A DNA stretch of 15,745 nt from a virus, in the UHGV virus genome UHGV-0374175. One strand, given 5' to 3'. The notes beneath the pieces were generated by a model. That model searched no databases. It was not told the DNA's origin and worked only from the letters and a program-made list of their open reading frames with translations. The translations under genes and the position numbers were made by a program. Position 1 is the first letter of the stretch. Every line of letters starts with the position of its first letter. Positions 3,609-15,607 of this stretch are shown one piece after another.

Positions 3609-4462
3609 GCACCATCCTGAAATGGGCGGGTAATAAAACCACCATTATGTCCGAACTGAAAAAATACCTTCCTGCTGGCACGCGACTGGTTGAACCTTTC
3701 GCGGGTTCTTGTGCTGTGATGATGGAGACGGATTACCCCAGCTATCTGGTTGCGGATATTAATCCTGATTTAATCAACCTCTATAAAAAGGTTGCTGCTG
3801 ATTGTGAGGCGTTTATATCTCGTGCCAGAGCTTTATTTGAGGAAGCAAACAGAGAGGTGGCTTATTACAACATAAGGCAGGAGTTTAATTACTCCACTGA
3901 AATTACTGATTTCATGAAAGCGGTATATTTTCTGTATCTCAATCGTCATGGTTACCGTGGGCTATGTCGCTATAACAAGAGCGGGTATTTCAACATTCCC
4001 TACGGTAATTATAAAAATCCGTATTTCCCTGAAAAAGAAATTCGCGCATTTGCAGAGAAAGCCCAGCGGGCAACGTTTATCTGCGCCAGCTTTGATGAAA
4101 CGCTGGCGATGTTGAAGGCGGGGGATGTGGTGTATTGCGATCCGCCTTATGACGGTACGTTTTCCGGCTATCACACTGATGGCTTCACTGAAGATGACCA
4201 GTATCACCTGGCATCCGTTCTTGAACATCGATCATCTGAAGGTCATCCGGTCATTGTTTCTAACAGTGACACATCCCTGATCCGTTCGCTGTATCGCAAT
4301 TTTACTCACCACTACATCAAGGCAAAACGCAGCATCGGCGTGGCAGCTGGTGAGAGTAAATCTGCAACAGAAATCATCGCTGTTTCCGGGCCGCGCTGCT
4401 GGGTAGGATTTGATCCTTCGCGTGGCGTGGATTGTTCCGTCGTGTACGGAGTGCGTGCATGA
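3605..4462 (+). CDS. dam: DNA adenine methyltransferase (Dam-like, GATC N6-adenine MTase)
   Basis: LKWAGNK and EPFAGSCAV (AdoMet binding), [16 protein letters not shown], and the catalytic DPPY in [10 protein letters not shown]; strongly collinear with E. coli Dam as I recall it. ATG at 3605 overlaps the upstream stop. Confidence 0.9.
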
Positions 4463-6873
4463 GCCATGCTGATATGAACAACTGCAGCGGCTTTAACGAG
4501 GTCGCCGCAGCATTCTCATGGAACAGCCCGAAAAAGGCCATTAACCCTTATCTGGACCCGGCGGAAGTTGCGCCGGTTTCTGCGCTTTCAAACCTGATCA
4601 CTCTGTACGCTGCCGATAACGAGCAGGAACAACTGCGCCGCGAGGCACTGAGTGATCAGGTCTGGGAGCGTTATTTCTTTAATGAATCCCGTGATCCTGT
4701 CCAACGCGAAATGGAGCAGGATAAGCTAATTAGCCGGGCAAAGCTGGCGCATGAGCAGCAGCGTTTTAATCCAGACATGGCCATTCTGGCGGACGTCAAC
4801 GCCCAGCCTTCCCATATCAGCAAGCCGCTGATGCAACGTATTAAATACTTCAGCAGCCTGGGCAGGCCAAAGGCTTATTCCCGCTATTTGCGTGAGACGA
4901 TTAAGCCATGCTTGGAACGACTGGAGCATGTACGCGACAGTCAGCTATCCACTTCTTTTCGCTTTATGGCAAGCCATGAAGGGCTGGACGGCCTGCTGAT
5001 CCTGCCTGAAATGAGTCAGGATCAGGTGAAACGCCTGTCCACCTTGGTAGCTGCGCATATGAGCATGTGCCTTGATACAGCTTGTGGCGATTTGTATGCC
5101 ACCGATGATGTTACGCCAGAAGAAATCCGCAAGACATGGGAAAAGGTGGCAGCGGAAACCCTGCGTCTGGATGTTATCCCGCCTGCGTTTGAGCAACTCT
5201 GTCGGAAAAGAAACCGCCGTAAACCCGTGCCTTATGAACTCATTCCGGGTTCGCTGGCGCGTATGTTATGCGCCGACTGGTGGTATCGGAAATTATGGAA
5301 GATGCGTTGCGAATGGCGGGAAGAGCAGTTGCGTGCTGTTTGCCTGGTCAGCAAAAAAGCATCTCCCTATGTCAGCTATGAAGCTGTGATGCATAAACGT
5401 GAGCAGCGCCGTAAGTCGCTGGAGTTTTTCCGTTCTCATGAACTGGTGAACGAAGACGGCGACACGCTGGATATGGAAGACGTGGTAAACGCCAGCAGCA
5501 GCAACCCTGCGCATCGCCGCAATGAGATGATGGCCTGTGTTAAAGGTCTGGAGCTTATCGCGGAAATGCGTGGTGACTGCGCCGTTTTCTACACCATCAC
5601 CTGTCCGTCACGTTTCCATTCCACGCTAAATAACGGCAGGCCCAACCCGACCTGGACAAATGCGACGGTAAGACAAAGCAGTGATTATCTGGTCGGTATG
5701 TTTGCTGCATTTCGTAAGGCGATGCACAAAGCCGGATTACGCTGGTATGGCGTGCGGGTGGCTGAGCCGCATCATGACGGTACAGTTCACTGGCACCTGT
5801 TGTGTTTTATGCGCAAAAAAGATCGCCGCGCCATTACTGCTTTGTTGCGTAAGTTTGCCATTCGTGAAGACCGCGAGGAGCTGGGTAATAACACGGAACC
5901 ACGCTTTAAGTCTGAGCTGATAAACCCGCGCAAAGGTACGCCAACAAGCTACATCGCGAAATACATCAGTAAGAACATTGACGGGCGTGGTCTGGCTGGC
6001 GAGATCAGCAAGGAAACGGGTAAATCCCTGCGTGATAACGCCGAATACGTTAATGCCTGGGCGTCTCTGCATCGTGTTCAGCAATTCCGCTTCTTTGGCA
6101 TTCCGGGGCGTCAGGCTTACCGTGAACTGCGATTGCTGGCTGGTCAGGCGGCAAGGCAACAGGGTGACAAAAAAGCAGGTGCGCCGGTACTGGATAACCC
6201 GCGTCTTGATGCCATTCTGGCTGCTGCGGATGCTGGTTGTTTTGCCACCTACATCATGAAGCAGGGTGGCGTACTGGTTCCCCGTAAATATCACCTCATC
6301 AGAACCGCTTATGAAATCAACGAAGAGCCGACCGCCTATGGCGATCACGGCATTCGTATTTATGGCATCTGGTCACCCATTGCAGAGGGCAAGATCTGCA
6401 CTCATGCAGTGAAGTGGAAAATGGTTCGTAAAGCCGTTGACGTTCAGGAGGCGGCAGCCGACCAGGGCGCTTGCGCCCCTTGGACTCGTGGCAATAACTG
6501 TCCCCTTGCTGAAAATTTGAACCAACAGGAGAAAGATAAATCAGCTGATGGGGACACCAGAACGGACATTACCCGCATGGATGACAAGGAGTTGCACGAT
6601 TACCTGCACAGTATGAGCAAAAAAGAGCGCCGGGAACTGGCAGCAAGGTTACGCCAGGTGAAGCCGAAAAGGCGTAAAGACTACAAACAGCGAATTACAG
6701 ATCATCAGCATCAGCAGCTCGTCTATGAACTGAAGTCCAGAGGATTTGATGGCAGCGAGAAAGAGGTCGATTTACTCCTTCGCGGTGGCAGTCTTCCGTC
6801 AGGAGCAGGCCTGCGTATCTTCTATCGGAACCAGCGTTTGCAGGAAGATGATAAGTGGCGGAACCTGTATTAA
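4459..6873 (+). CDS. A: Replication initiation endonuclease (P2 gpA / 186 A family, rolling-circle initiator)
   Basis: 804-aa ORF. ATG at 4459 overlaps the Dam stop (ATGA) and follows GGAG. It contains [11 protein letters not shown] (HUH-type metal-binding motif) and YIAKYISKN (catalytic tyrosine region), typical of the P2 A family. Position after the TraR-like ORF matches P2/186. Confidence 0.9.
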
Positions 6874-6942
6874 TTACGCGAGTTAACAATTCGTGCTCTT
6901 AATAATACCAGGCATATCAGGCTGATGAACGTAAAAAAACGT

Positions 6943-7000
6943 TTTACATCAGTAAGATTATTATATACTGTAAATATAAACATTGGTTATATATACAGTA
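6943..7000 (+). promoter_or_regulatory. Candidate SOS-regulated promoter (p95-like) with LexA-box-like operator(s)
   Basis: TTTACA at 6943-6948 and a -10-like TATACT at 6964-6969. Overlapping this is tACTGTaaatataaACATtg (CTGT-N8-ACAT, 16 of 20 matches to the LexA consensus TACTGTATATATATACAGTA). A second, weaker half-site ends in ACAG at 6995-6998. All lie directly upstream of the tum-like/DinI-like pair. Confidence 0.4.
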
Positions 7001-7025
7001 TTACTTTGGTGTCATAGGAGGAAAG

Positions 7026-7214
7026 ATGCAGGACTATTTTTTGGAGTCTTTGAAGCTCCAGCGCATTGATTTTTTTCTTAAGCTTGTAGCGGCTAGTGAG
7101 TGTAGTGATGAAGAGAAGGGGCTGGCTTTGCAGTGGGTTTCTGAATTGACTGATGAACTCATGGCAAAAATCAGAACCCACGAATACAACCGCTCAATGG
7201 ATGTCGTTAACTGA
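7026..7214 (+). CDS. Hypothetical small protein, possible Tum (antirepressor) N-terminal-like module
   Basis: 62-aa ORF with a strong GGAGG RBS, located between the replication gene and a DinI-like ORF downstream of a LexA-box-like site. This is the position of tum in 186. Confidence 0.5.
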   Translation: MQDYFLESLKLQRIDFFLKLVAASECSDEEKGLALQWVSELTDELMAKIRTHEYNRSMDVVN

Positions 7215-7225
7215 GGGAGTAATTT

Positions 7226-7459
7226 ATGCGCATTGAAATAATGATCGATAAAGAGCAGAAGATTAGCCAGTCTACCCTGGAGGCCCTTGAATCCGAACTT
7301 TACCGCAATCTGCGCCCCCTGTATCCCAAAACGGTAATTCGTATCCGTAAAGGTAGCTCTAACGGTGTGGAACTGACTGGACTGCAACTGGACGAAGAAA
7401 GGAAGCAAGTGATGAAAATTATGCAGAAGGTGTGGGAAGACGACAGCTGGCTGCATTAA
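7226..7459 (+). CDS. DinI-family protein (Tum C-terminal-like / SOS-regulated)
   Basis: MRIEIMIDKEQKISQSTLEALESELYRNLRPLYP...KQVMKIMQKVWEDDSW is collinear with E. coli DinI as I recall it (MRIEVTIAK...ELSRR...ILQETWESADDW). GGGAG RBS. Confidence 0.8.
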   Translation: MRIEIMIDKEQKISQSTLEALESELYRNLRPLYPKTVIRIRKGSSNGVELTGLQLDEERKQVMKIMQKVWEDDSWLH

Positions 7460-7603
7460 GAAACGTTGCTGGCGTCTGAACTTGTTTCTGGCGTCAGCAA
7501 GGTTGAACAACGAGCCCTTGTGAGGCGTTAGCTCTGTAGTGCATGTCTATGCCGCATGAGATCGCATGATCGTTTGAGGATCGTTTTTGCTAAGGCCCGC
7601 CAG

Positions 7604-7628
7604 AACTGGCGGGCTTTTGCGTAGATCA
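7604..7628 (+). terminator. Rho-independent terminator
   Basis: GGCCCGCCAG (7604-7613), 2-nt loop, CTGGCGGGC (7616-7624), followed by TTTT (7625-7628). Confidence 0.7.
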
Positions 7629-7663
7629 TGCAGGTGCATGAAAACCACTACATAAAGCGGGCA

Positions 7664-7682
7664 GGCGTGGCGGGGATACGAG
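7664..7682. other. cos-like motif (possible cohesive-end site of the P2/186 family)
   Basis: GGCGTGGCGGGGA at 7664-7676 matches the first 13 nt of the P2/186 19-nt cohesive end as I recall it (GGCGAGGCGGGGAAAGCAC in P2); the remaining 6 nt diverge. It lies between the replication-side genes and the portal side, where the cos of a P2-family prophage should be. Confidence 0.3.
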
Positions 7683-7690
7683 CGCGCGCC

Positions 7691-7719
7691 TTGCCTTATA
7701 TCTATTTGTTCATTAAAAT
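7691..7719 (+). promoter_or_regulatory. Candidate sigma70 promoter for the retron ncRNA/operon
   Basis: TTGCCT at 7691-7696, 17-nt spacer, TAAAAT at 7714-7719, at the left edge of the AT-rich island and upstream of the palindrome and RT gene. Confidence 0.4.
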
Positions 7720-7725
7720 CATTAT

Positions 7726-7925
7726 GCTCTTTAGTGTAGGAACATTGGTTCCAGCCGGGTGATTAGCCAGGCTTAAATTTATTGTCCGGTTTAGGGTTGC
7801 GAAAGACACAGATTTCTCCTTCGCATCCCTGCCCGGGGCAGATATGCGAAGGAGAAATCTGTGTCTTTCGCTGTCTTTAGTGAAGAGTCAAAGCGCTATG
7901 TAAAGTTGCATAGCGCTTTGGTTTT
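7726..7925 (+). ncRNA. Putative retron msr-msd non-coding RNA (boundaries approximate)
   Basis: Non-coding stretch immediately upstream of a retron-type RT. It contains a 28-bp perfect inverted repeat (the likely msd template stem) and a second 12-bp stem-loop before the RT start. I could not identify a convincing a1/a2 inverted-repeat pair or the branching G by eye, so the ends are not defined. Confidence 0.45.
7799..7871. repeat. 28-bp perfect inverted repeat with 17-nt spacer (probable msd stem-loop)
   Basis: GCGAAAGACACAGATTTCTCCTTCGCAT (7799-7826) is the exact reverse complement of ATGCGAAGGAGAAATCTGTGTCTTTCGC (7844-7871). The spacer itself contains the palindrome CTGCCC-G-GGGCAG. Confidence 0.9.
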
Positions 7926-7937
7926 AAGAGGGGTTAT

Positions 7938-8873
7938 ATGCAACTAACTTCTAAAATTATCAGTAAGTTTAATTATAATAGATTAGCTTTCCAATTACTT
8001 TTAAATGAGGCCCCCAAAAAATATAAAGTTTATTATATTCCTAAACGTGGCGCAGGTTTTCGGGTGATAGCTCAGCCGACAAAGGAACTAAAAAACGTAC
8101 AGAGATTTATAGTATCTTTGCTACAGCCAAAGCTGCCTGTTCATCATAAGGCAATGGCATATGAATATAAAAAAAGTATTAAAGATAATGCATTGTTGCA
8201 TAAAGATAATAATTATATTCTTAAAATGGATTTTCAGAACTTCTTTAACAAAATTAAACCTGATATATTTTTCTCGAAACTTGAGAACACAGGGCTGAAA
8301 TTGGATTCATTTGATGAGAACACCCTACGTAATTTGCTTTTTTGGCGTCCGGGAAAAAAGAGAAGTACAACGTTGATATTAAGTGTAGGGGCGCCAAGCT
8401 CACCATTTATTAGTAATTTTGTTATGTATGACTTTGACAAGAGTCTTGATGATTGGTGCCGTAACAATGGTATCACTTATTCAAGGTATGCAGATGATAT
8501 AACTTTTTCAACTAATATTAAGGATATATTGTGCAGGGTTCCTAAGGTGGTAAAAAAAATGTTGTCGCTCCATGTTCCCGGTCTATCAATCAATGAATCT
8601 AAAACAATTTTTACATCGATGGCTCATAATCGGCACGTGACTGGTGTAACACTTACACCTCAGGGCAATTTATCAATTGGTCGCGATCGTAAAAGGATGC
8701 TGTTTGCAAAGATTCATAAATATTCTTTGGGACTCTTATCTTCCGAAGAAATAAATAAAACCAAAGGGATGATTGCGTTTGCAAATTATTTGGAGGGTGA
8801 TTTTTTATTAAGGTTACAAAAAAAATATGGTTGTGAGTTAATAACTAAGTTCCTGATGGAAGGAAACAAATAA
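7938..8873 (+). CDS. ret: Retron-type reverse transcriptase
   Basis: 311 aa. RT active site YADD (YSRYADDITFS), retron-typical motif NRHVTGVTL (NAxxH / VTG), and RT motifs such as VGAPSSPFISN. GAGGGG RBS. Preceded by structured non-coding DNA. Confidence 0.92.
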   Translation: MQLTSKIISKFNYNRLAFQLLLNEAPKKYKVYYIPKRGAGFRVIAQPTKELKNVQRFIVSLLQPKLPVHHKAMAYEYKKSIKDNALLHKDNNYILKMDFQNFFNKIKPDIFFSKLENTGLKLDSFDENTLRNLLFWRPGKKRSTTLILSVGAPSSPFISNFVMYDFDKSLDDWCRNNGITYSRYADDITFSTNIKDILCRVPKVVKKMLSLHVPGLSINESKTIFTSMAHNRHVTGVTLTPQGNLSIGRDRKRMLFAKIHKYSLGLLSSEEINKTKGMIAFANYLEGDFLLRLQKKYGCELITKFLMEGNK

Positions 8874-10507
8874 TGATAAATAAAATGAATTTAGAGACTT
8901 GCTATGTTGATTTTTTAGAGTTGGAATCACATGTGATAAACGAGGATTATTTGAAGGAGTCTGTTGAGCTTCAAAAGCTAATATCTACTTTAAATGAGAG
9001 TAAGTTTCATTTAAATAAAATAGGTATACATGATTTTAAACGGATAAGAGAACTACAGATTTCCTTAGAAGATGATTTGACTGTTTTTGTCGGGGATAAC
9101 GGATTCGGTAAAAGCACTATTTTGGATGCAATAGCAATTGTTTTGAGTTGGTTGAGATCAAATATTGAAAAGGAGAGTAAGCCTGGTACTTATATTAAAA
9201 GCCATGAAGTTAATAACTCTGTTGATGTTGAGTATGCATCAATTGATGCAAATATAAAACTTAAGGACTTTAATACCAGTATTTTGATTACTAAAGCGAA
9301 AGAGGGGGCATATTATTCTAGAAATAATGAATTGTTGGAGGTAAAAAAACTTGCAAGTATTTATAGACTTGTGAATAAATATGTTGATAATGCAAGCTTG
9401 CCTTTGATGGCATATTATTCTATTGCGCGTTCTTATATAGGCGGTGGGGTTGATAGGAAAAGAAAAAATGCTAAAACTAAAACTGTATGGTCAAAATTCG
9501 ATGTGTATGATGAAATCGAGTTTGACAGAAATGATTTTACCGATTTTTTTCAATGGCTTGTATTTCTTCATAACAGAGCTTCACAAGAGAAATTGAGTGA
9601 GTCACAAACGACAATCAATGCGTTATTTTCAGATATTCAAAGTTTGAAAGCAACATTAACTCAACTATCTGCGATTGATAATATTGATTCAACAGTTATA
9701 AAAGGTTTAGAGCTTTCGCTTAAAGAAAAATTGAACTACATGAAATCTCTGCAATCAGGAGAACATAAGTTTAATAATGCAGTATCACTTTATGATAGTG
9801 TTATAAATACCATTCTAAAGTTCTTGCCTGAATTTCAGTGGATTAAGCTTGTTTATGGTGATGATGATTATAAGATTATCCTTAAAAAAGGAGAGGTTGA
9901 ATTAGATGTTCAACAGTTGTCTCAAGGTGAGAAAACTATATTTACTTTAGTTGGTGATTTGGCTCGACGTTTAATTTTACTTAATCCAAATTTATCTAAT
10001 CCTCTATTGGGATATGGGATTGTTTTAATTGATGAAATTGATTTGCATTTGCATCCGCAATGGCAACAGACAATTATTGAGCGTTTGACATCTACATTCC
10101 CAAATGTTCAATTTGTAGTTACTACCCATAGCCCACAGGTTTTATCCACTGTTAGCTCTCGTTCAGTGCGTATTCTACAGGAAGTGGAAGTAGATGGTGT
10201 TAATGATTTGATAGTGTCTCACCCCGACTATCAAATAAAAGGTGTTAGTAATCAGGATGCACTTTTATATGGAATGAGAACTGATCCTATACCCTCTACT
10301 AAAGAAAATGGTTGGCTTGAAGAATATAAAAAATTGGTTGAGCTTAATCGTTATAGCAGTGACGAGGCTCTTTTGTTAAGAGAAAAAGTTATTAAACATT
10401 TCGGATTAGACCATCCTTTAGTTCAAGAGTGTGATGATCTTATATCTGTTTTGGAGTTCAAAAATAAGATAAATCAGCACTTTTCTGGAAGTAAGGATGT
10501 AAAATGA
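8873..10507 (+). CDS. ABC/SMC-like ATPase (Septu PtuA-like retron effector)
   Basis: 544 aa. Walker A GDNGFGKST, ABC signature-like LSQGEKTIF, Walker B VLIDEIDLHLHP, and a long helical middle region. Its start overlaps the RT stop (TAATG). Confidence 0.85.
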   Translation: MINKMNLETCYVDFLELESHVINEDYLKESVELQKLISTLNESKFHLNKIGIHDFKRIRELQISLEDDLTVFVGDNGFGKSTILDAIAIVLSWLRSNIEKESKPGTYIKSHEVNNSVDVEYASIDANIKLKDFNTSILITKAKEGAYYSRNNELLEVKKLASIYRLVNKYVDNASLPLMAYYSIARSYIGGGVDRKRKNAKTKTVWSKFDVYDEIEFDRNDFTDFFQWLVFLHNRASQEKLSESQTTINALFSDIQSLKATLTQLSAIDNIDSTVIKGLELSLKEKLNYMKSLQSGEHKFNNAVSLYDSVINTILKFLPEFQWIKLVYGDDDYKIILKKGEVELDVQQLSQGEKTIFTLVGDLARRLILLNPNLSNPLLGYGIVLIDEIDLHLHPQWQQTIIERLTSTFPNVQFVVTTHSPQVLSTVSSRSVRILQEVEVDGVNDLIVSHPDYQIKGVSNQDALLYGMRTDPIPSTKENGWLEEYKKLVELNRYSSDEALLLREKVIKHFGLDHPLVQECDDLISVLEFKNKINQHFSGSKDVK

Positions 10508-11187
10508 AATATCTATCTAGGCAAATGCCAGGGCCTTCCGTTCTTAATAAATTTGACTATAGGAGGGATGATTGGAATTCCCTATCATCAAATGATAAAA
10601 AAGAAATATGGGAAGAAATAATAAAAATGCAAGGTAAATTATGTGCTTATTGCGAGAAAAAAATAGAGCATCATAAAAGTGGTGACAAAAATAAAGTTGA
10701 GAGGCATATTGAGCATTTTTACAGGAAAAGTTATTACAAAAATTTAACTTTCGAGTGGTCTAATTTGTTTGGCTCATGTGGTGAGCCGCAAAGGTGTGGG
10801 TTTTATAAGGATAAGCAAAAATATAACGATGATGATTTAATTAAAGCTGATAGACAAAATCCAGATGTTTTTTTCCATTTTTTGGAAAATGGTGATGTTC
10901 ATATTAGAGAAGGCTTGAATGAGAAAGAACACAAAATGGCAGAGGTTACGTTAAGAGTATTTAACTTAAACCCGTCCTCAGGAGGAGTCAAGGCGGAAAG
11001 AAGACGTGCAATAGAATTAAGCATGACATTAATAAAGGAACTGGTCGGATGTGCATCTCAGCTTATTGAATCAGGATGTGAAATTGAAGATGTTAGATCT
11101 ATGGTCTTTGATGAGTTTAAAAAGAATGTAAAAGATAGATGCTTTACCACTGCGATAAAGCATGTTTTTGAGAATAGAATGCCTTAA
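10504..11187 (+). CDS. HNH endonuclease (Septu PtuB-like retron effector)
   Basis: 227 aa with CAYCEKKIEHH...ERHIEHFYRKS...NLFGSCGEPQRCGFY (Cys pairs plus His-rich HNH core). Its start overlaps the ATPase stop (ATGA). Confidence 0.85.
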   Translation: MKYLSRQMPGPSVLNKFDYRRDDWNSLSSNDKKEIWEEIIKMQGKLCAYCEKKIEHHKSGDKNKVERHIEHFYRKSYYKNLTFEWSNLFGSCGEPQRCGFYKDKQKYNDDDLIKADRQNPDVFFHFLENGDVHIREGLNEKEHKMAEVTLRVFNLNPSSGGVKAERRRAIELSMTLIKELVGCASQLIESGCEIEDVRSMVFDEFKKNVKDRCFTTAIKHVFENRMP

Positions 11188-11210
11188 AGGTTAGAGGGAT
11201 GTATATATAA

Positions 11211-12242
11211 TTAATCTATATTATATTCTGAGAAATTGATAATATGCATCCCTATCCACTGATTAAATTCATGGATTTTTTTTTGTAGAGGTACTAATTC
11301 ATTTGTCACAAAAACCTTACTAGCTTTCTCCACATCCCCAAACCCCCCAACATTATTCGGCATAATCCCCATCATTTGCGGCGGCACACGGTGTGCCGCC
11401 ATCATGTCGTCCCGGCTCACGTTCTTGATATTCAGAAATTCATCCTTCGCTGCAACTTCTGACAACGGGATGATCTGAAGCCCGTCCTTTTTGCCGTTAG
11501 GCGAGTACATAAACAAGTTACGGAAGTTGCCCGGTCCTTTGGCGTTTTTCATCGCGTTGCGGAGGTTGTTCACATCCTCCTGGTTCTGCGCGGCGTCAGT
11601 CATATACATGATGAAGCCTGCATGACTGCCGTTAATGTAATACTTGCGGCGGAACAGCGTGGCGGACTCGTTGAGCAGGGCTGACGGAATGGCAGAAAGA
11701 TAACCGGGCAGGCCGTAGATCTCCTGGTTGATGTCCGGTTCCATCAGATGAAAAATGCTGCCTTTCGCGAACTGATACGGCTGGGTTGTCATACCGTATT
11801 GCACAAACCAGTAGGTATCCAGGTCTAACCCGCGTCGGGTGTATTTTGCCAGCGCAGGCTCAAGGGCGATAACTTCACCGAATCGGTTCGTGCGTTTCTC
11901 CAGGTAGGCGTTACCAAATACCAGATAGTCCAGCACAAAACGCGAAAAAGCCTGCTGGCTGAGAAGCGGGTGAGGGATGTAGGTGCTGGTCAGAATGTTG
12001 CATTTCACTGCAATTGGTGAACTGTGATGCACGGCAGCGCGGAAGGTGCGCGCCAGTCCGTCAAAGCTGACGGGAGGCTCATACCAGCGATCTGTCTGTA
12101 CGCATTCCACATAGTCCAGCAGTTCGCGGCGGTCAAGTACTGGAATGGGATCACCGAAGCTGAATGCTTCGGCTGAAGCTTGGCTTTTATGCTGGATCTG
12201 GTTCGTCGCCGCAGCGCGTTTTTTTTTACTCTTTCCCATCAA
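11211..12242 (-). CDS. Q: Portal (capsid portal vertex) protein, P2 gpQ family
   Basis: 343-aa ORF matching my recollection of P2 Q in length and arrangement. It is convergent with the cargo island, and its start overlaps the stop of the upstream terminase gene (ATGA), as in the P2 P-Q operon. Confidence 0.85.
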   Translation of the reverse strand: MMGKSKKKRAAATNQIQHKSQASAEAFSFGDPIPVLDRRELLDYVECVQTDRWYEPPVSFDGLARTFRAAVHHSSPIAVKCNILTSTYIPHPLLSQQAFSRFVLDYLVFGNAYLEKRTNRFGEVIALEPALAKYTRRGLDLDTYWFVQYGMTTQPYQFAKGSIFHLMEPDINQEIYGLPGYLSAIPSALLNESATLFRRKYYINGSHAGFIMYMTDAAQNQEDVNNLRNAMKNAKGPGNFRNLFMYSPNGKKDGLQIIPLSEVAAKDEFLNIKNVSRDDMMAAHRVPPQMMGIMPNNVGGFGDVEKASKVFVTNELVPLQKKIHEFNQWIGMHIINFSEYNID

Positions 12243-13081
12243 AAAATCTCCACAATATTGCTGGTATTGGCGGACTCGCCCTGCAGCGGTTCGTTAAACA
12301 GTGCGTGCATTGTTGCCCAGGCCAGATCGGCATGGCTGGCTTCTTCACTGCGGCTTGCTTCATAGGTCGGGCGGTTGCCGCTGGCGGTGGTTGCGCGACG
12401 GATTGCCATAAATGACTGCGCTATGTCGGTGTGTCCGGCGTCAAACTCCAGACGACGGTGACTGATAATGTCGTAGGCCTTGAGTACCAGGGCGTTTTTA
12501 ACGTTGGGGTTGTAGACAAACTCCCGGACGGCTGGAAAAAACGCTTTCACGTTTTCATAAACCCCGTGACCGACACCCGTCGAGTCGATGCCGATATAGG
12601 TCACGTTGTACTGTTCGGTCAGTTTTTTGATGGCGTCAGCCTGGGCGCGGAAGTCCATCCCGCGCCACTGGTGACGCTCAAGAATGCGGAACTTACCGCC
12701 CGGCACGGCTGGCGGTGCCACCACCACGCATCCGGCGCTGTCGCCGTTTTGCGTACCTTTTGCCGGGTCATAACCGATCCACACCTCGCGCCAGCCAAAC
12801 GGGCGCAGGGCCAGTGCATGAAAGTCGGTCCAGACTTCCCAGCTGTCCACCATGCACGCCTGCAGCTCGCTGAGCGGGAACACGGACGCGAGATCGTCCA
12901 CGAACTCGCACATCAGCAGGTTCTGGTATTCGTCCGGGCTGTACTCCATGCGCAACTGGTCAAGGTCGAACAGGTTACAGCCGCCGCGCACCGCATCTTC
13001 CACGGTGACTATCTGGCGGTATTGCCCGTCTGCGCACAGCAGGCCGGGGGCCAGATTGCTATGGGACAGGTCGATGTCCAC
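12239..13081 (-). pseudogene. P: Terminase large (ATPase) subunit, P2 gpP family: C-terminal fragment only
   Basis: The 280-aa ORF (reported start is a GTG) is directly upstream of and coupled to Q. The frame is open upstream to a stop at 13172-13174 with no ATG/GTG/TTG start in between, so the N-terminal ATPase half is absent. The upstream side abuts a baseplate-J fragment on the other strand. Confidence 0.75.
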
Positions 13082-13120
13082 CTTGTCGGCTTTGTTGCGT
13101 CCACGGTTGAACAGCGCACC

Positions 13121-13711
13121 GGACCAGAACGGATACCGCCCGTTGCGGCTGTGATGGAAAGTGATGAAGCGTTACGCCTGCGTGTGCCTGCAGCCTTTGA
13201 AGGGCTTTCTGTTGCTGGGCCAACTGCCGCTTATGAGTTTCATGCACGAAGCGCCGACGGTCGGGTGGCGGATGCCAGTGCAACCAGTCCGGCACCTGCA
13301 GAGGTGGTGCTTACGGTCCTAAGCCGTGAAGGCGACGGAACAGCAGAAAAAGACCTGCTGGATGTGGTGGAGAAAGCCCTGAACAGTGAGAACGTCCGCC
13401 CGGTGGCTGACCGTCTGACGGTTCGCAGCGCGGAAATCATCCCGTACCGCGTGGAAGCCACCATTTTTCTCTATCCGGGGCCGGAAGCAGAGCCGGTAAT
13501 GGCAGCGGCAAAAGCCAGCCTGCAGAGGTACATCGCCAGTCAGACGCGGCTTGGTCGGGATATTCGCCGTAGCGCCATTTTTGCCGCGCTGCATGTTGAG
13601 GGTGTTCAGCGTGTGGAACTGGCTTCCCCGCTGGCGGATGTGGTCATGAACAAAACGCAGGCGGCATCATGTACGCAGTGGAGCGTGACCAACGGGGGTA
13701 CGGATGAATAG
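13121..13711 (+). pseudogene. J: Baseplate assembly protein J (P2 gpJ family): C-terminal fragment
   Basis: ...IPPVAAVMESDEALRLRVPAAFEGLSVAGPTAAYEFHARSADGRVAD...GRDIRRSAIFAALHVEGVQRVELASPLADVV... matches the C-terminal two-thirds of P2 J as I recall it. The N-terminal part is missing. The 5' portion of the tracked ORF (12431-13120) is antisense to the terminase fragment and is not J. Confidence 0.75.
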
Positions 13712-14309
13712 TCTGCTGCCACCGGGTTCAACGCCACTGGAGCGCCGACTGGCGCAAACCTGCAGCGGGATTTCTGATCTGCAGGTGCCGCTGCGTGACT
13801 TGTGGAATCCGGCAACCTGTCCGGTCAGTTTCCTGCCTTATCTCGCCTGGGCGTTCTCTGTGGATCGCTGGGACGAGGGCTGGACAGAAAGCGTCAAACG
13901 TCAGGTGGTGAAGGATGCTTTTTATATTCATCAGCATAAAGGAACCACCAGTGCCGTGCGGCGGGTGGTGGAGCCGTTCGGCTTTCTGATCCGCATTATT
14001 GAGTGGTGGCAGACCGGAGAGGCACCGGGCACGTTTCGTCTGGATATCGGCGTGCAGGACCAGGGCATCACTGAAGATACCTATCTGGAACTTGAGCGAC
14101 TGATAAGCGATGCCAAACCATGTAGCCGTCACATGATCGGCATGTCCATCAACCTGCAGACCAGCGGCCCGCACTGGGTGGGAGCCGCCAGCTATCTTGG
14201 CGAAGAAATCACGATCTATCCGTATATCAACGAAACAATTATTTCCGGCGGCACCGCGCATGAAGGCGGGGCGGTCCATGTTATTGACACAATGAGAGTG
14301 AATCCATGA
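13704..14309 (+). CDS. I: Tail/baseplate protein I (P2 gpI family)
   Basis: 201-aa ORF immediately after J, with its stop overlapping the start of the H-like gene (ATGA). This is the J-I-H order of P2-family tail operons. Confidence 0.8.
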   Translation: MNSLLPPGSTPLERRLAQTCSGISDLQVPLRDLWNPATCPVSFLPYLAWAFSVDRWDEGWTESVKRQVVKDAFYIHQHKGTTSAVRRVVEPFGFLIRIIEWWQTGEAPGTFRLDIGVQDQGITEDTYLELERLISDAKPCSRHMIGMSINLQTSGPHWVGAASYLGEEITIYPYINETIISGGTAHEGGAVHVIDTMRVNP

Positions 14310-15607
14310 GCACAAAATTTTATACCCTGCTGACGGATATTGGCGCGGCGAAACTTGCCAGCGCCGCCGCGCTCGGTGTGCCGCTAAAAATTACCCATAT
14401 GGCGGTGGGCGATGGCGGCGGAGTATTGCCGACGCCGGACGCAAAGCAGACTGCACTGGTAAATGAGAAACGCCGGGCTGCGCTGAATATGCTCTATATC
14501 GACCCGCAGAACAGCAGCCAGATTATTGCTGAACAGGTGATCCCTGAAAACGAGGGCGGTTGGTGGATACGTGAAGTGGGCCTGTTTGATGAGTCAGGGG
14601 CATTGATTGCCGTGGGGAACTGCCCGGAAAGCTATAAACCGCAACTGGCTGAAGGCAGCGGGCGCACCCAGACCGTGCGCATGGTGCTGATTACCAGCAG
14701 CAAGGAAAATATCACCCTGAAAATCGATCCTGCTGTAGTGCTGGCAACCCGCAAGTATGTGGATGACAAGGTACTGGAGCTGAAGGTGTATGTGGATGAC
14801 CTGATGGCAAAACACCTTGCCGCACAGGACCCACATTCACAGTATGCACAGAAAGAAAGTCCGACGTTTACCGGGAAACCCAAAGCGCCAACGCCAGCAG
14901 CAGGGAATAACACCACGCAGATTGCGACCACCGCGTTTGTTCAGGCGGCACTGATAGCCCTTATTAATGGTGCGCCAGCCACACTGGATACGCTGAAAGA
15001 AATTGCCGCTGCCATTAATAATGACCCGAAATTCAGTACCACCATTAACAATGCGCTGGCACTGAAAGCGCCGTTGTCGAGTCCGGCACTCACCGGAACG
15101 CCAACAGCCCCCACGGCGGCGCAGTCGGTCAACAATACACAGATTGCCACTACGGCTTTTGTGAAATCGGCGATTGCGGCAATGGTGGGTTCTGCACCTG
15201 CGGCACTGGATACACTGAACGAACTGGCGGCGGCGCTGGGGAATGACCCGAACTTTGCCACGACAATGCTTAATGCACTGGCAGGTAAACAACCGCTGGA
15301 CAATACGCTGACTAATTTGAGTGGAAAGGATGTAGCTGGTCTTCTCACATACCTTGGTTTGGGAGAAGGTTCGGCATTACCCGTTGGTGTGCCTGTTCCG
15401 TGGCCTTCAGCCACACCGCCTACTGGCTGGCTGAAATGCAACGGTGCGGCTTTTTCTGCTGAAGAATACCCGGAACTGGCAAAGGTTTATCCGACAAATA
15501 AATTGCCTGATTTACGCGGTGAATTTATTCGTGGCTGGGATGACGGACGTGGAGTGGATGCCGGGCGACAATTATTATCTTCACAGGGGGATGCAATAAG
15601 AAATATT
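14306..15607 (+). pseudogene. H: Tail fibre protein H (P2 gpH family), N-terminal ~434 codons, truncated by IS1
   Basis: N-terminus MSTKFYTLLTDIGAAKLASA... and internal repeats (NNTQIATTAFV... twice) are typical of P2-type tail fibres. The reading frame runs into IS1 sequence from 15608, so the C-terminal receptor-binding part is missing from this locus. Confidence 0.8.

Follow-up and report, generated by a model that had tools for sequence, protein, structure and literature searches.

The window (the whole stretch of 15,745 nucleotides that was analyzed) carries three retron genes on the + strand, preceded by a long hairpin. The first gene (7938-8873) encodes a retron reverse transcriptase (RT) of 311 amino acids, recognized by PADLOC as RT_I-A (4.9e-131), by the NCBIfam model retron_St85_RT (321 bits, cutoff 235) and by Pfam RVT_1 (3.7e-30). 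Its ATG at 7938 is preceded by the ribosome-binding site AAGAGGGG. The second gene (8873-10507) encodes PtuA, an SMC-family ATPase effector of 544 amino acids (PADLOC PtuA 2.3e-193 and ATPase_I-A 1.1e-151; NCBIfam PtuA 471 bits, just under the cutoff of 500). The third (10504-11187) encodes PtuB, an HNH nuclease effector of 227 amino acids (PADLOC PtuB 6e-118 and HNH_I-A 5e-57; NCBIfam PtuB 160 bits, over the cutoff of 150). This set of RT, PtuA and PtuB therefore places the system among the type I-A retrons.

The prophage around the retron is a P2-like remnant. A Dam methylase, a replication protein GPA and a DinI-like gene (7226-7459) lie upstream, and a portal gene on the opposite strand lies downstream; together with baseplate J/I and tail fibre genes, these are the P2-like genes surrounding the retron. 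Given such flanks, the retron sits in the gpA-gpQ defence hotspot of P2-like prophages (PMC9122126). A megablast search of the retron against deposited phage genomes returned no match, and among those genomes no sequenced active phage is known to carry it. The length of the hairpin, 73 nt, had also suggested Ec73 and a P4-like satellite. This candidate was rejected, as the surrounding genes are P2-like and the RT and effectors are typed as I-A, not Ec73-like.

The hairpin occupies positions 7799-7871, between the DinI-like gene and the RT. An inverted-repeat search of the window identified two arms of 36 nt (7799-7834 and 7836-7871), 94% complementary and separated by 1 nt. No longer inverted repeat is found in the 15.7-kb window, the runner-up being 24 nt long with 83% complementarity. 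The initial annotation had described a perfect 28-bp stem, a 17-nt loop and a nested palindrome, and a separate, independent stem scan recovered all of them. The perfect stem pairs 7799-7826 with 7844-7871, and the loop (7827-7843, CCCTGCCCGGGGCAGAT) contains the palindrome CTGCCC-G-GGGCAG, a 6-bp tip separated from the main stem by a 2x2 mismatch (CC/AT). The full sequence reads GCGAAAGACACAGATTTCTCCTTCGCAT-CC-CTGCCC-G-GGGCAG-AT-ATGCGAAGGAGAAATCTGTGTCTTTCGC.

Such a stem had been considered very unlikely to arise by chance, and the statistics agree. Among 60 shuffles of the window that preserved its dinucleotides, the longest perfect stem was 8.9 bp on average and 12 bp at most, while the analytic expectation for a stem of at least 28 bp is ~4e-12. 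The RNA of positions 7715-7937 folds with a z-score of -11.0, and the - strand DNA with a z-score of -13.4 to -13.5; in both cases none of 200 shuffles folded as well. No second copy of the palindrome is present in the window, and none was found in E. coli genomes outside the retron loci.

The sequence on both sides of the hairpin has the organization of a retron non-coding RNA (ncRNA). The sole sigma-70-like match within 7440-8000 is a promoter-like site, TTGCCT-17-TAAAAT, on the + strand (7691-7719, 9 of 12 positions). From its position, this site would set the start of transcription at ~7726, where the ncRNA begins. The 5' end of this RNA is formed by the inverted repeat a2 (GCUCUUUA, 7726-7733), which pairs with a1 (UGAAGAGU, 7881-7888) through a stem that includes two G-U pairs and is seen in both the fold and the alignment. 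Directly after a2 comes the putative branching (priming) G, G7734, which follows a conserved UUA and is invariant in all 12 homologous loci compared. The UUA-G motif, by which a retron priming G is recognized at the sequence level, is located at 7731-7734, in agreement with the published rule of UUA followed by the branching G (PMC12819146). Two msr stem-loops (7739-7752 and 7753-7773) are supported by the folds and by the Rfam msr match. They are followed by a highly conserved linker (AAUUUAUUG, 7776-7784; columns A51-G59, invariant or nearly so in the 11-sequence alignment) and by the expected zone where the msDNA's 3' end would stay paired (the termination region, ~7787-7798, with estimated boundaries). 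The roles proposed for the linker and the termination region are those of the “clamp” and the “termination sequence” (PMC12475279) and of the Eco7 heteroduplex, and are assigned by analogy. Beyond the hairpin, positions 7872-7879 (UGUCUUUA in the RNA) would template the single-stranded 5' tail of the msDNA, following the rule known from Eco7. Position 7880 holds the opposing G, located across from the branching G where the a1:a2 stem ends (concept from PMC12673091), and is likewise invariant in all 12 loci. The minimum free energy fold of 7715-7937 contains the GCUCUUUA-UGAAGAGU stem, the unpaired G7734, the two msr loops, the hairpin and a second hairpin.

Two Rfam models match this region over their full length, both on the + strand. 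The msr model (RF00170) covers 7726-7790 with 45.9 bits (E 1e-6), below its gathering score of 52, and the STnc400 model (RF02058) covers 7792-7929 with 73 bits (E 6e-14), below its gathering score of 80. Placed end to end, the two models span 7726-7929 and reproduce the helices, including the second hairpin. The window differs from the models in its shorter first msr stem-loop and in the hairpin loop, of 17 nt as against 6 in the model. Further Rfam matches to MIR7533, mir-2068 and mir-254, on both strands and far below the gathering scores, were discarded as generic artefacts of long hairpins. The sum of the msr and STnc400 model lengths (69 + 125) equals the size of the Salmonella STnc400 precursor, ~190 nt.

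The ncRNA and the RT belong to a system that is already known; on comparison of sequences, the element is known at the exact-sequence level. Window positions 7600-8000 are 100% identical to E. coli FORC_082 (NZ_CP026641.1), and a base-by-base comparison of 7620-7937, which contains the promoter-like site and the ncRNA, gave 0 differences. The RT gene shows one silent difference, the protein being 100% identical to that of FORC_082; all 311 residues are also identical to chain E of PDB 9N69. PtuA and PtuB match chains A (1189 bits) and F (522 bits) of the same entry with over 99% identity, and differ from the FORC_082 proteins by three substitutions (G156E, I346V and I416V) and one substitution (G61D), respectively. 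Both retrons occupy the same prophage position. Past ~12772 the prophages diverge: FORC_082 has a TIR gene, gpV and gpW, whereas in the window a terminase fragment is joined to baseplate J. Because the differences in PtuA, PtuB and the prophage mean that the window is not FORC_082 itself, we infer the activity of the retron in the strain of the window.

The entries 9N69, 9N6B and 9N6C are cryo-EM structures of the FORC_082 type I-A retron (George et al., Nat Commun 2025;16:8459, PMC12475279; bioRxiv PMC11974896). The same work reports that the covariance model found upstream of type I-A RTs includes “a long stem-loop” (PMC11974896, PMC12475279) and that the retron protects against T3 and T5 (PMC11974896, PMC12475279). 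The purified complex contains an msDNA of ~90 nt and ~40 nt of ncRNA, and its priming guanosine is position 8 of the ncRNA, preceded by A7 (PMC12475279). When the ncRNA is numbered from 7727, A7 and G8 correspond to A7733 and G7734. The msDNA is described as a “harpoon” that passes through the center of a 364-kDa complex, in which the RT is joined by four ATPases and the HNH nuclease; at the tip of the msDNA, twelve bases are disordered, and truncation of the loop leaves defence intact (PMC12475279). Since the hairpin is the sole long stem-loop in the ~550 nt upstream of the RT and the lengths agree, the published msDNA was mapped to 7787-7879. The proposal that the hairpin is a candidate msd template was thus borne out by its surroundings (the msr match, a1/a2, the UUA-G motif, the opposing G and the downstream retron RT), and equally by covariation and by the 100% identity to the FORC_082 ncRNA and RT. 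All the features that define a retron ncRNA and the type I-A class at the sequence level are present. The best explanation, which we regard as nearly certain, identifies the hairpin with the msd region of a type I-A retron ncRNA, acting by the mechanism proposed below.

In comparison, the closest relatives after FORC_082 are Ec78/Eco7 and Ec83/Eco4. Retron-Eco7 (Ec78) has the same operon of ncRNA, RT, PtuA and PtuB, and it, too, has a1/a2 repeats of 8 nt, a branching G with an opposing G across from it, and a long msd stem-loop from which a DNA spine binding four PtuA is formed (PMC12819146, PMC12673091). Its RT is distant in sequence from that of the window (E 7e-85, as against 1e-209 for 9N69). 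Ec78 has a 22-bp stem and an msDNA of 77 nt, whereas the window has 28 bp plus the 6-bp tip and an msDNA of ~90 nt. The tRNA targets also differ, being tRNA-Tyr for Ec78 and tRNA-Ser for the FORC_082 retron, and debranching by ExoVII, documented for Ec78, is only assumed for the retron of the window. Retron-Eco4 (Ec83, type I-A, PDB 9E8Z) has the same set of RT, PtuA and PtuB. Its RT and ATPase are homologous to those of the window (E 5e-79 and 1e-65, respectively), and this retron is more distant than Ec78.

It had been argued that the perfect symmetry of the hairpin prevents the template strand from being inferred from the sequence alone. In fact, the CC/AT mismatch breaks the symmetry, as does the odd G at the center, and the flanks have no symmetry at all. 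Nor is the strand ambiguous, as the msr and STnc400 matches, a1/a2, the UUA-G motif and the orientation of the RT identify the + strand RNA as the template. The two Rfam matches fall on the + strand only, and the a2/a1 stem, with its two G-U pairs, forms only in the + strand RNA. The same strand also carries the UUA-G motif, the opposing G and, further downstream, the RT gene. On these sequence features, the template is the + strand RNA, and the msDNA carries the - strand sequence. The hairpin at 7799-7871 is accordingly the template as RNA and the duplex shaft of the msDNA as DNA.

The ends of the msDNA were predicted from Eco7. In that retron, the a1:a2 stem ends with the branching G facing the opposing G, and the next base is the first to be templated; the last base to be templated lies 50 nt past the branching G; ExoVII removes nt 1-4; and the final six bases of the DNA remain paired with the msr RNA (PMC12673091). 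Following this rule, A7879 would be the first templated base of the window. Synthesis would stop near 7787, a point placed relative to the conserved AUUG motif, and the distance from G7734 would then be ~53 nt, as against the 50 nt of Eco7. This placement draws on the position of the msDNA end in Ec86. The predicted primary msDNA is thus 5'-TAAAGACAGCGAAAGAC...GTCTTTCGCAACCCTAAACCG-3', on the - strand (7787-7879), with an uncertainty of about 3 nt at the 3' end. Its 93 nt would be arranged as 5'-TAAAGACAGC-[hairpin]-AACCCTAAACCG-3', to be shortened to ~89 nt, with GACAGC as the predicted 5' start, if four nucleotides are trimmed as in Ec78. Folded as DNA, the 93-nt molecule reaches -41.1 kcal/mol (z -13.4). 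Both predicted lengths, ~93 and ~89 nt, match the ~90 nt measured for the identical ncRNA (PMC12475279). The hairpin would therefore be the core of the msDNA, extended by a 5' tail of 8 nt and a 3' tail of ~12 nt. The initial annotation had considered that the hairpin plus a few flanking nucleotides would fall within the length range of known E. coli msDNAs. The core is as it supposed, but the flanks are longer: the msDNA exceeds the hairpin by ~20 nt, at a predicted ~93 or ~89 nt and a measured ~90 nt.

The conservation of this structure was assessed over a wide range of hosts. A scan with one genome per species yielded 12 loci with RTs 45-50% identical, in Vibrio cholerae, Shewanella, Cellvibrio, Ketobacter, Methylococcaceae and others. 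In per-locus folds, 12 of 12 homologous loci carry a2, G, the msr loops, a long and nearly perfect hairpin, G, a1 and a second hairpin, in one and the same order. The sequences of the hairpin are unrelated among the homologous loci. Directly upstream of the RT in ten distant loci, msr matches of 52-79 bits, above the gathering score, were found; when these ten loci are aligned to the window, 47 columns are invariant. Type I-A retrons at the same prophage position are also carried by two more E. coli strains, N10 and AREA_497. A distant blastn search with the ncRNA in 5,426 complete E. coli genomes gave hits in 8 genomes only. As few variants of intermediate distance are available, the covariation analysis relied on an alignment of 11 sequences, comprising three E. 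coli variants and eight distant gammaproteobacterial loci.

RNAalifold recovered three helices from this alignment, with compensatory changes in 28 of the 45 pairs. Over the 11 sequences, 95.2% of the cells are paired, compared with 43-47% when the partners are slid by 1-3 columns, and cells with a double change number 106, versus 14-24 in these slid controls. None of 500 shuffles reached any of the observed covariation measures. The a1/a2 helix (helix 1) is 97.7% paired over the 11 loci and has compensatory changes at two positions (GCUC/GAGC, GCCC/GGGC and UCUC/GAGA), and helix 2, within the msr, is 100% paired over the 11 loci. In the msd helix, 93% of the cells are paired, with changes on both sides. 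The base of this stem is kept, as GCGAAAG/CUUUCGC or GCGGAAG/CUUCCGC, and its distal part varies freely. The covariation check that had been suggested for the stem was thus strongly positive, with two-sided changes in 25 of the 30 msd pairs and no equal among the 500 shuffles.

The composition of the pairs indicates on which molecule selection acts. The msd stem contains 278 Watson-Crick cells, a single G-U and 18 unpaired cells, mostly misaligned tips. The helices that exist only as RNA do contain G-U pairs, which make up 4 of the 88 a1/a2 cells and 17 of the 33 cells of the short extension beneath the stem. Copying into cDNA turns a G-U pair of the RNA into a C-A mismatch, and a stem nearly free of G-U therefore appears to have been selected to pair as DNA too. 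From the alignment, this indicates that the msd stem is under selection to pair both as DNA and as RNA, as expected of an msDNA.

The following mechanism is proposed for this retron. A promoter near 7691-7719 would direct the synthesis of a + strand RNA from ~7726. The ends of this RNA would pair, a2 (7726-7733) with a1 (7881-7888), which would bring G7734 opposite G7880. The RT would prime from the 2'-OH of G7734, copy leftwards from A7879 through the hairpin and stop at ~7787. Removal of the template by RNase H would leave a DNA of ~90 nt with the - strand sequence. This DNA would refold into the same 28-bp hairpin, and its 3' end would remain base-paired with the msr RNA that the RT holds. 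The DNA duplex would serve as a shaft for the assembly of two PtuA dimers and PtuB, which are kept inactive there. Flap nucleases or exonucleases of an infecting phage would then degrade the msDNA, the complex would collapse, and PtuB would cut tRNA-Ser, so that translation stops.

Published work on the identical ncRNA and RT has established the production of msDNA, the structure, the trigger and which tRNA is targeted (PMC12475279). In particular, degradation of the msDNA by phage flap nucleases or exonucleases was found to cause disassembly of the complex, and the HNH nuclease then cleaves tRNA-Ser (PMC12475279). In the window itself, the anatomy, the strand, the conservation with its covariation, and the identity to the published system were observed directly. 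Where exactly the msDNA begins and ends, and whether ExoVII trims it, are predicted by analogy.

The hairpin might instead be the core of a free-standing, Hfq-associated small RNA, STnc400, which would act as a regulator in trans without any template for reverse transcription. The highest-scoring Rfam match over the hairpin is indeed to this family (RF02058, 73 bits, E 6e-14), and STnc400 was detected as a stable RNA in Salmonella, where it maps between STM3844 and STM3845 (PMC2515195). In the window and at two other loci (L007 and L010), though, the STnc400 match comes directly after the msr match and before the retron RT. The STM3844-STM3845 site is immediately upstream of the St85 retron genes, so that the family in Rfam appears to represent, under another name, the msd half of the St85-family retron ncRNAs. 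A stem nearly free of G-U also points to selection on a DNA hairpin and speaks against the small RNA, which we consider very improbable. A strong intergenic hairpin downstream of the gene at 7226-7459 could also be read as an intrinsic terminator of the DinI-like gene, or as a generic hairpin stabilizing its mRNA. The stem had been judged too long for a terminator, rightly so: 28 bp is far beyond terminator length, and no U-tract follows it (UGUCUUUAGUG). The terminator scan made no call at 7799-7871, the DinI-like gene already has a terminator-like hairpin of its own (GGCCCGCCAG..CUGGCGGGCUUUUGC, 7589-7620), and the hairpin is preceded by the msr and by a promoter-like site of its own, so that this role deserves next to no credence.

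The palindrome could finally act as double-stranded DNA, as a cruciform, a site of recombination or packaging near the P2 cos, or the inverted ends of a small mobile element. In favour of such a role, the element is nearly a perfect palindrome at the DNA level and belongs to the cos-proximal gpA-gpQ part of a P2-like prophage. However, type I-A RTs in the unrelated genomes of Vibrio, Shewanella, Cellvibrio and Methylococcaceae are preceded by the same structure with a different sequence, and the flanks fetched for these loci contain no P2 context. The register of the structure relative to msr, a1 and a2 is fixed throughout, and the palindrome has no other copies in the window, nor in E. coli genomes beyond the retron loci. 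A function as duplex DNA of the prophage is thus extremely unlikely, and the msd region of a type I-A retron is retained as the reading of the hairpin.

Since the same ncRNA and RT have already been cloned, the msDNA produced, the complex solved by cryo-EM and the defence mechanism tied to it, the locus has little discovery value. The published mechanism is that of an msDNA serving as a nuclease-sensitive scaffold that restrains PtuAB. The useful outcome here is annotation. For type I-A retrons, the template strand and the approximate ends of the msDNA can be read by rules that need only the sequence: a2-UUA-G, the opposing G before a1, and a stem free of G-U.

Between a1 and the ribosome-binding site of the RT lies the second hairpin, of 14 bp (7889-7920), followed by a GGUUUU tail (7889-7926 in total, + strand). 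A hairpin is present at this position after a1 in all 12 type I-A loci, with unrelated sequences, and it is included in the Rfam STnc400 model. The type I-A retron papers examined make no mention of it. It is possible, if somewhat doubtful, that this hairpin is a leaky intrinsic terminator or the 3'-end hairpin of the ncRNA, setting a high ratio of ncRNA to RT-PtuAB mRNA. Two observations hint at this: the summed lengths of the msr and STnc400 models match the ~190-nt Salmonella precursor, and U-rich tails are found in about 8-9 of the 12 loci. If true, it bears on how the msDNA “antitoxin” is kept in excess over the toxic effectors.

Current annotations do not reflect this organization. In the RefSeq record of FORC_082 the ncRNA is unannotated, the interval from the DinI-like gene to the RT being empty of features. 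The annotation of strain N10 has a pseudo “hypothetical protein” CDS close by, and it places the start of the RT too far upstream, across the second hairpin.

Immediately after a1, the retron carries a second hairpin, distinct from that of the msd. Together with its tail, this hairpin extends from 7889 to 7926 and has a 14-bp stem with a predicted energy of -20 kcal/mol. It abuts a1 and is followed by GGUUUU and then by the ribosome-binding site of the RT gene. A hairpin of unrelated sequence occupies the same position in all 12 of the type I-A loci, and a U-rich tail follows it in about eight to nine of them. The consulted papers on type I-A retrons make no mention of this element. It may represent a leaky terminator or a hairpin at the ncRNA's 3' end.

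The second hairpin is also included in the Rfam model of STnc400 (RF02058), which matches the msd half of the retron ncRNA (7792-7929). STnc400 has been described as an Hfq-associated small RNA of Salmonella, encoded between STM3844 and STM3845. This interval adjoins the St85 retron genes in Salmonella. The STnc400 precursor, of ~190 nt, is as long as the msr and STnc400 models taken together (69 + 125). The consulted papers on STnc400 make no reference to retrons.

The tip of the msd hairpin (7827-7843) contains a nested palindrome with a SmaI/XmaI site, CCCGGG. Small nested hairpins are also present at the msd tip of the near relatives L014 (E. coli N10), L015 and L007, and the msd loops of two other homologous loci, L008 and L009, are unstructured. 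In the retron of E. coli FORC_082, which has an identical ncRNA, defence was unaffected when the loop was truncated (PMC12475279). The homologous locus L013, from a Cellvibrionaceae MAG (1303-1425), possesses a normal msr, a1/a2 pair, branching G and opposing G, but an msd stem of just 8 bp. Its branching and opposing G are 106 nt apart, compared to 142-164 nt elsewhere, and the contig stops within the RT gene. Four PtuA subunits could hardly be scaffolded by a DNA as short as this one.

Upstream of the retron, a hairpin composed of GCTAAGGCCCGCCAG-AA-CTGGCGGGCTTTTGC (7589-7620) follows the DinI-like gene (7226-7459). This hairpin resembles an intrinsic terminator for that gene and sets it apart from the retron promoter. 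The retron itself is located between gpA (replication) and gpQ (portal), in the region 4432-12242. In P2-like prophages, the gpA-gpQ interval constitutes the cos-proximal hotspot for defence systems (Rousset et al. 2022, PMC9122126), and different type I-A retrons are found at the same prophage position in the E. coli strains N10 and AREA_497.

The window is not FORC_082 itself, with which it is collinear up to ~12772. At ~13136 (region 12772-13136), a terminase fragment is fused to the baseplate gene J, creating a chimeric ORF of 426 aa (12431-13711). FORC_082 instead encodes a TIR-domain protein, gpV and gpW at this place (13173-15502 of its locus, L001). Both are P2-like prophage remnants devoid of capsid genes. 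The exact junction of the window is absent from all complete E. coli genomes.

The ncRNA (7715-7937) is rare. Among 5,426 complete genomes of E. coli, only four contain it at an identity of at least 99.6% and only eight contain anything detectably similar; none was found in deposited phage genomes. Based on protein clusters, the same RT, PtuA and PtuB are present in many Salmonella enterica isolates, such as serovar Agona. The ncRNA bears no annotation in FORC_082. In E. coli N10 (NZ_CM165902.1), a RefSeq pseudo "hypothetical protein" CDS (L014 3957-4139) overlaps the beginning of the retron ncRNA, which is itself not annotated. RefSeq also opens the RT CDS of this strain at L014 4291, although the true start probably lies further downstream, and the CDS consequently spans the second hairpin.
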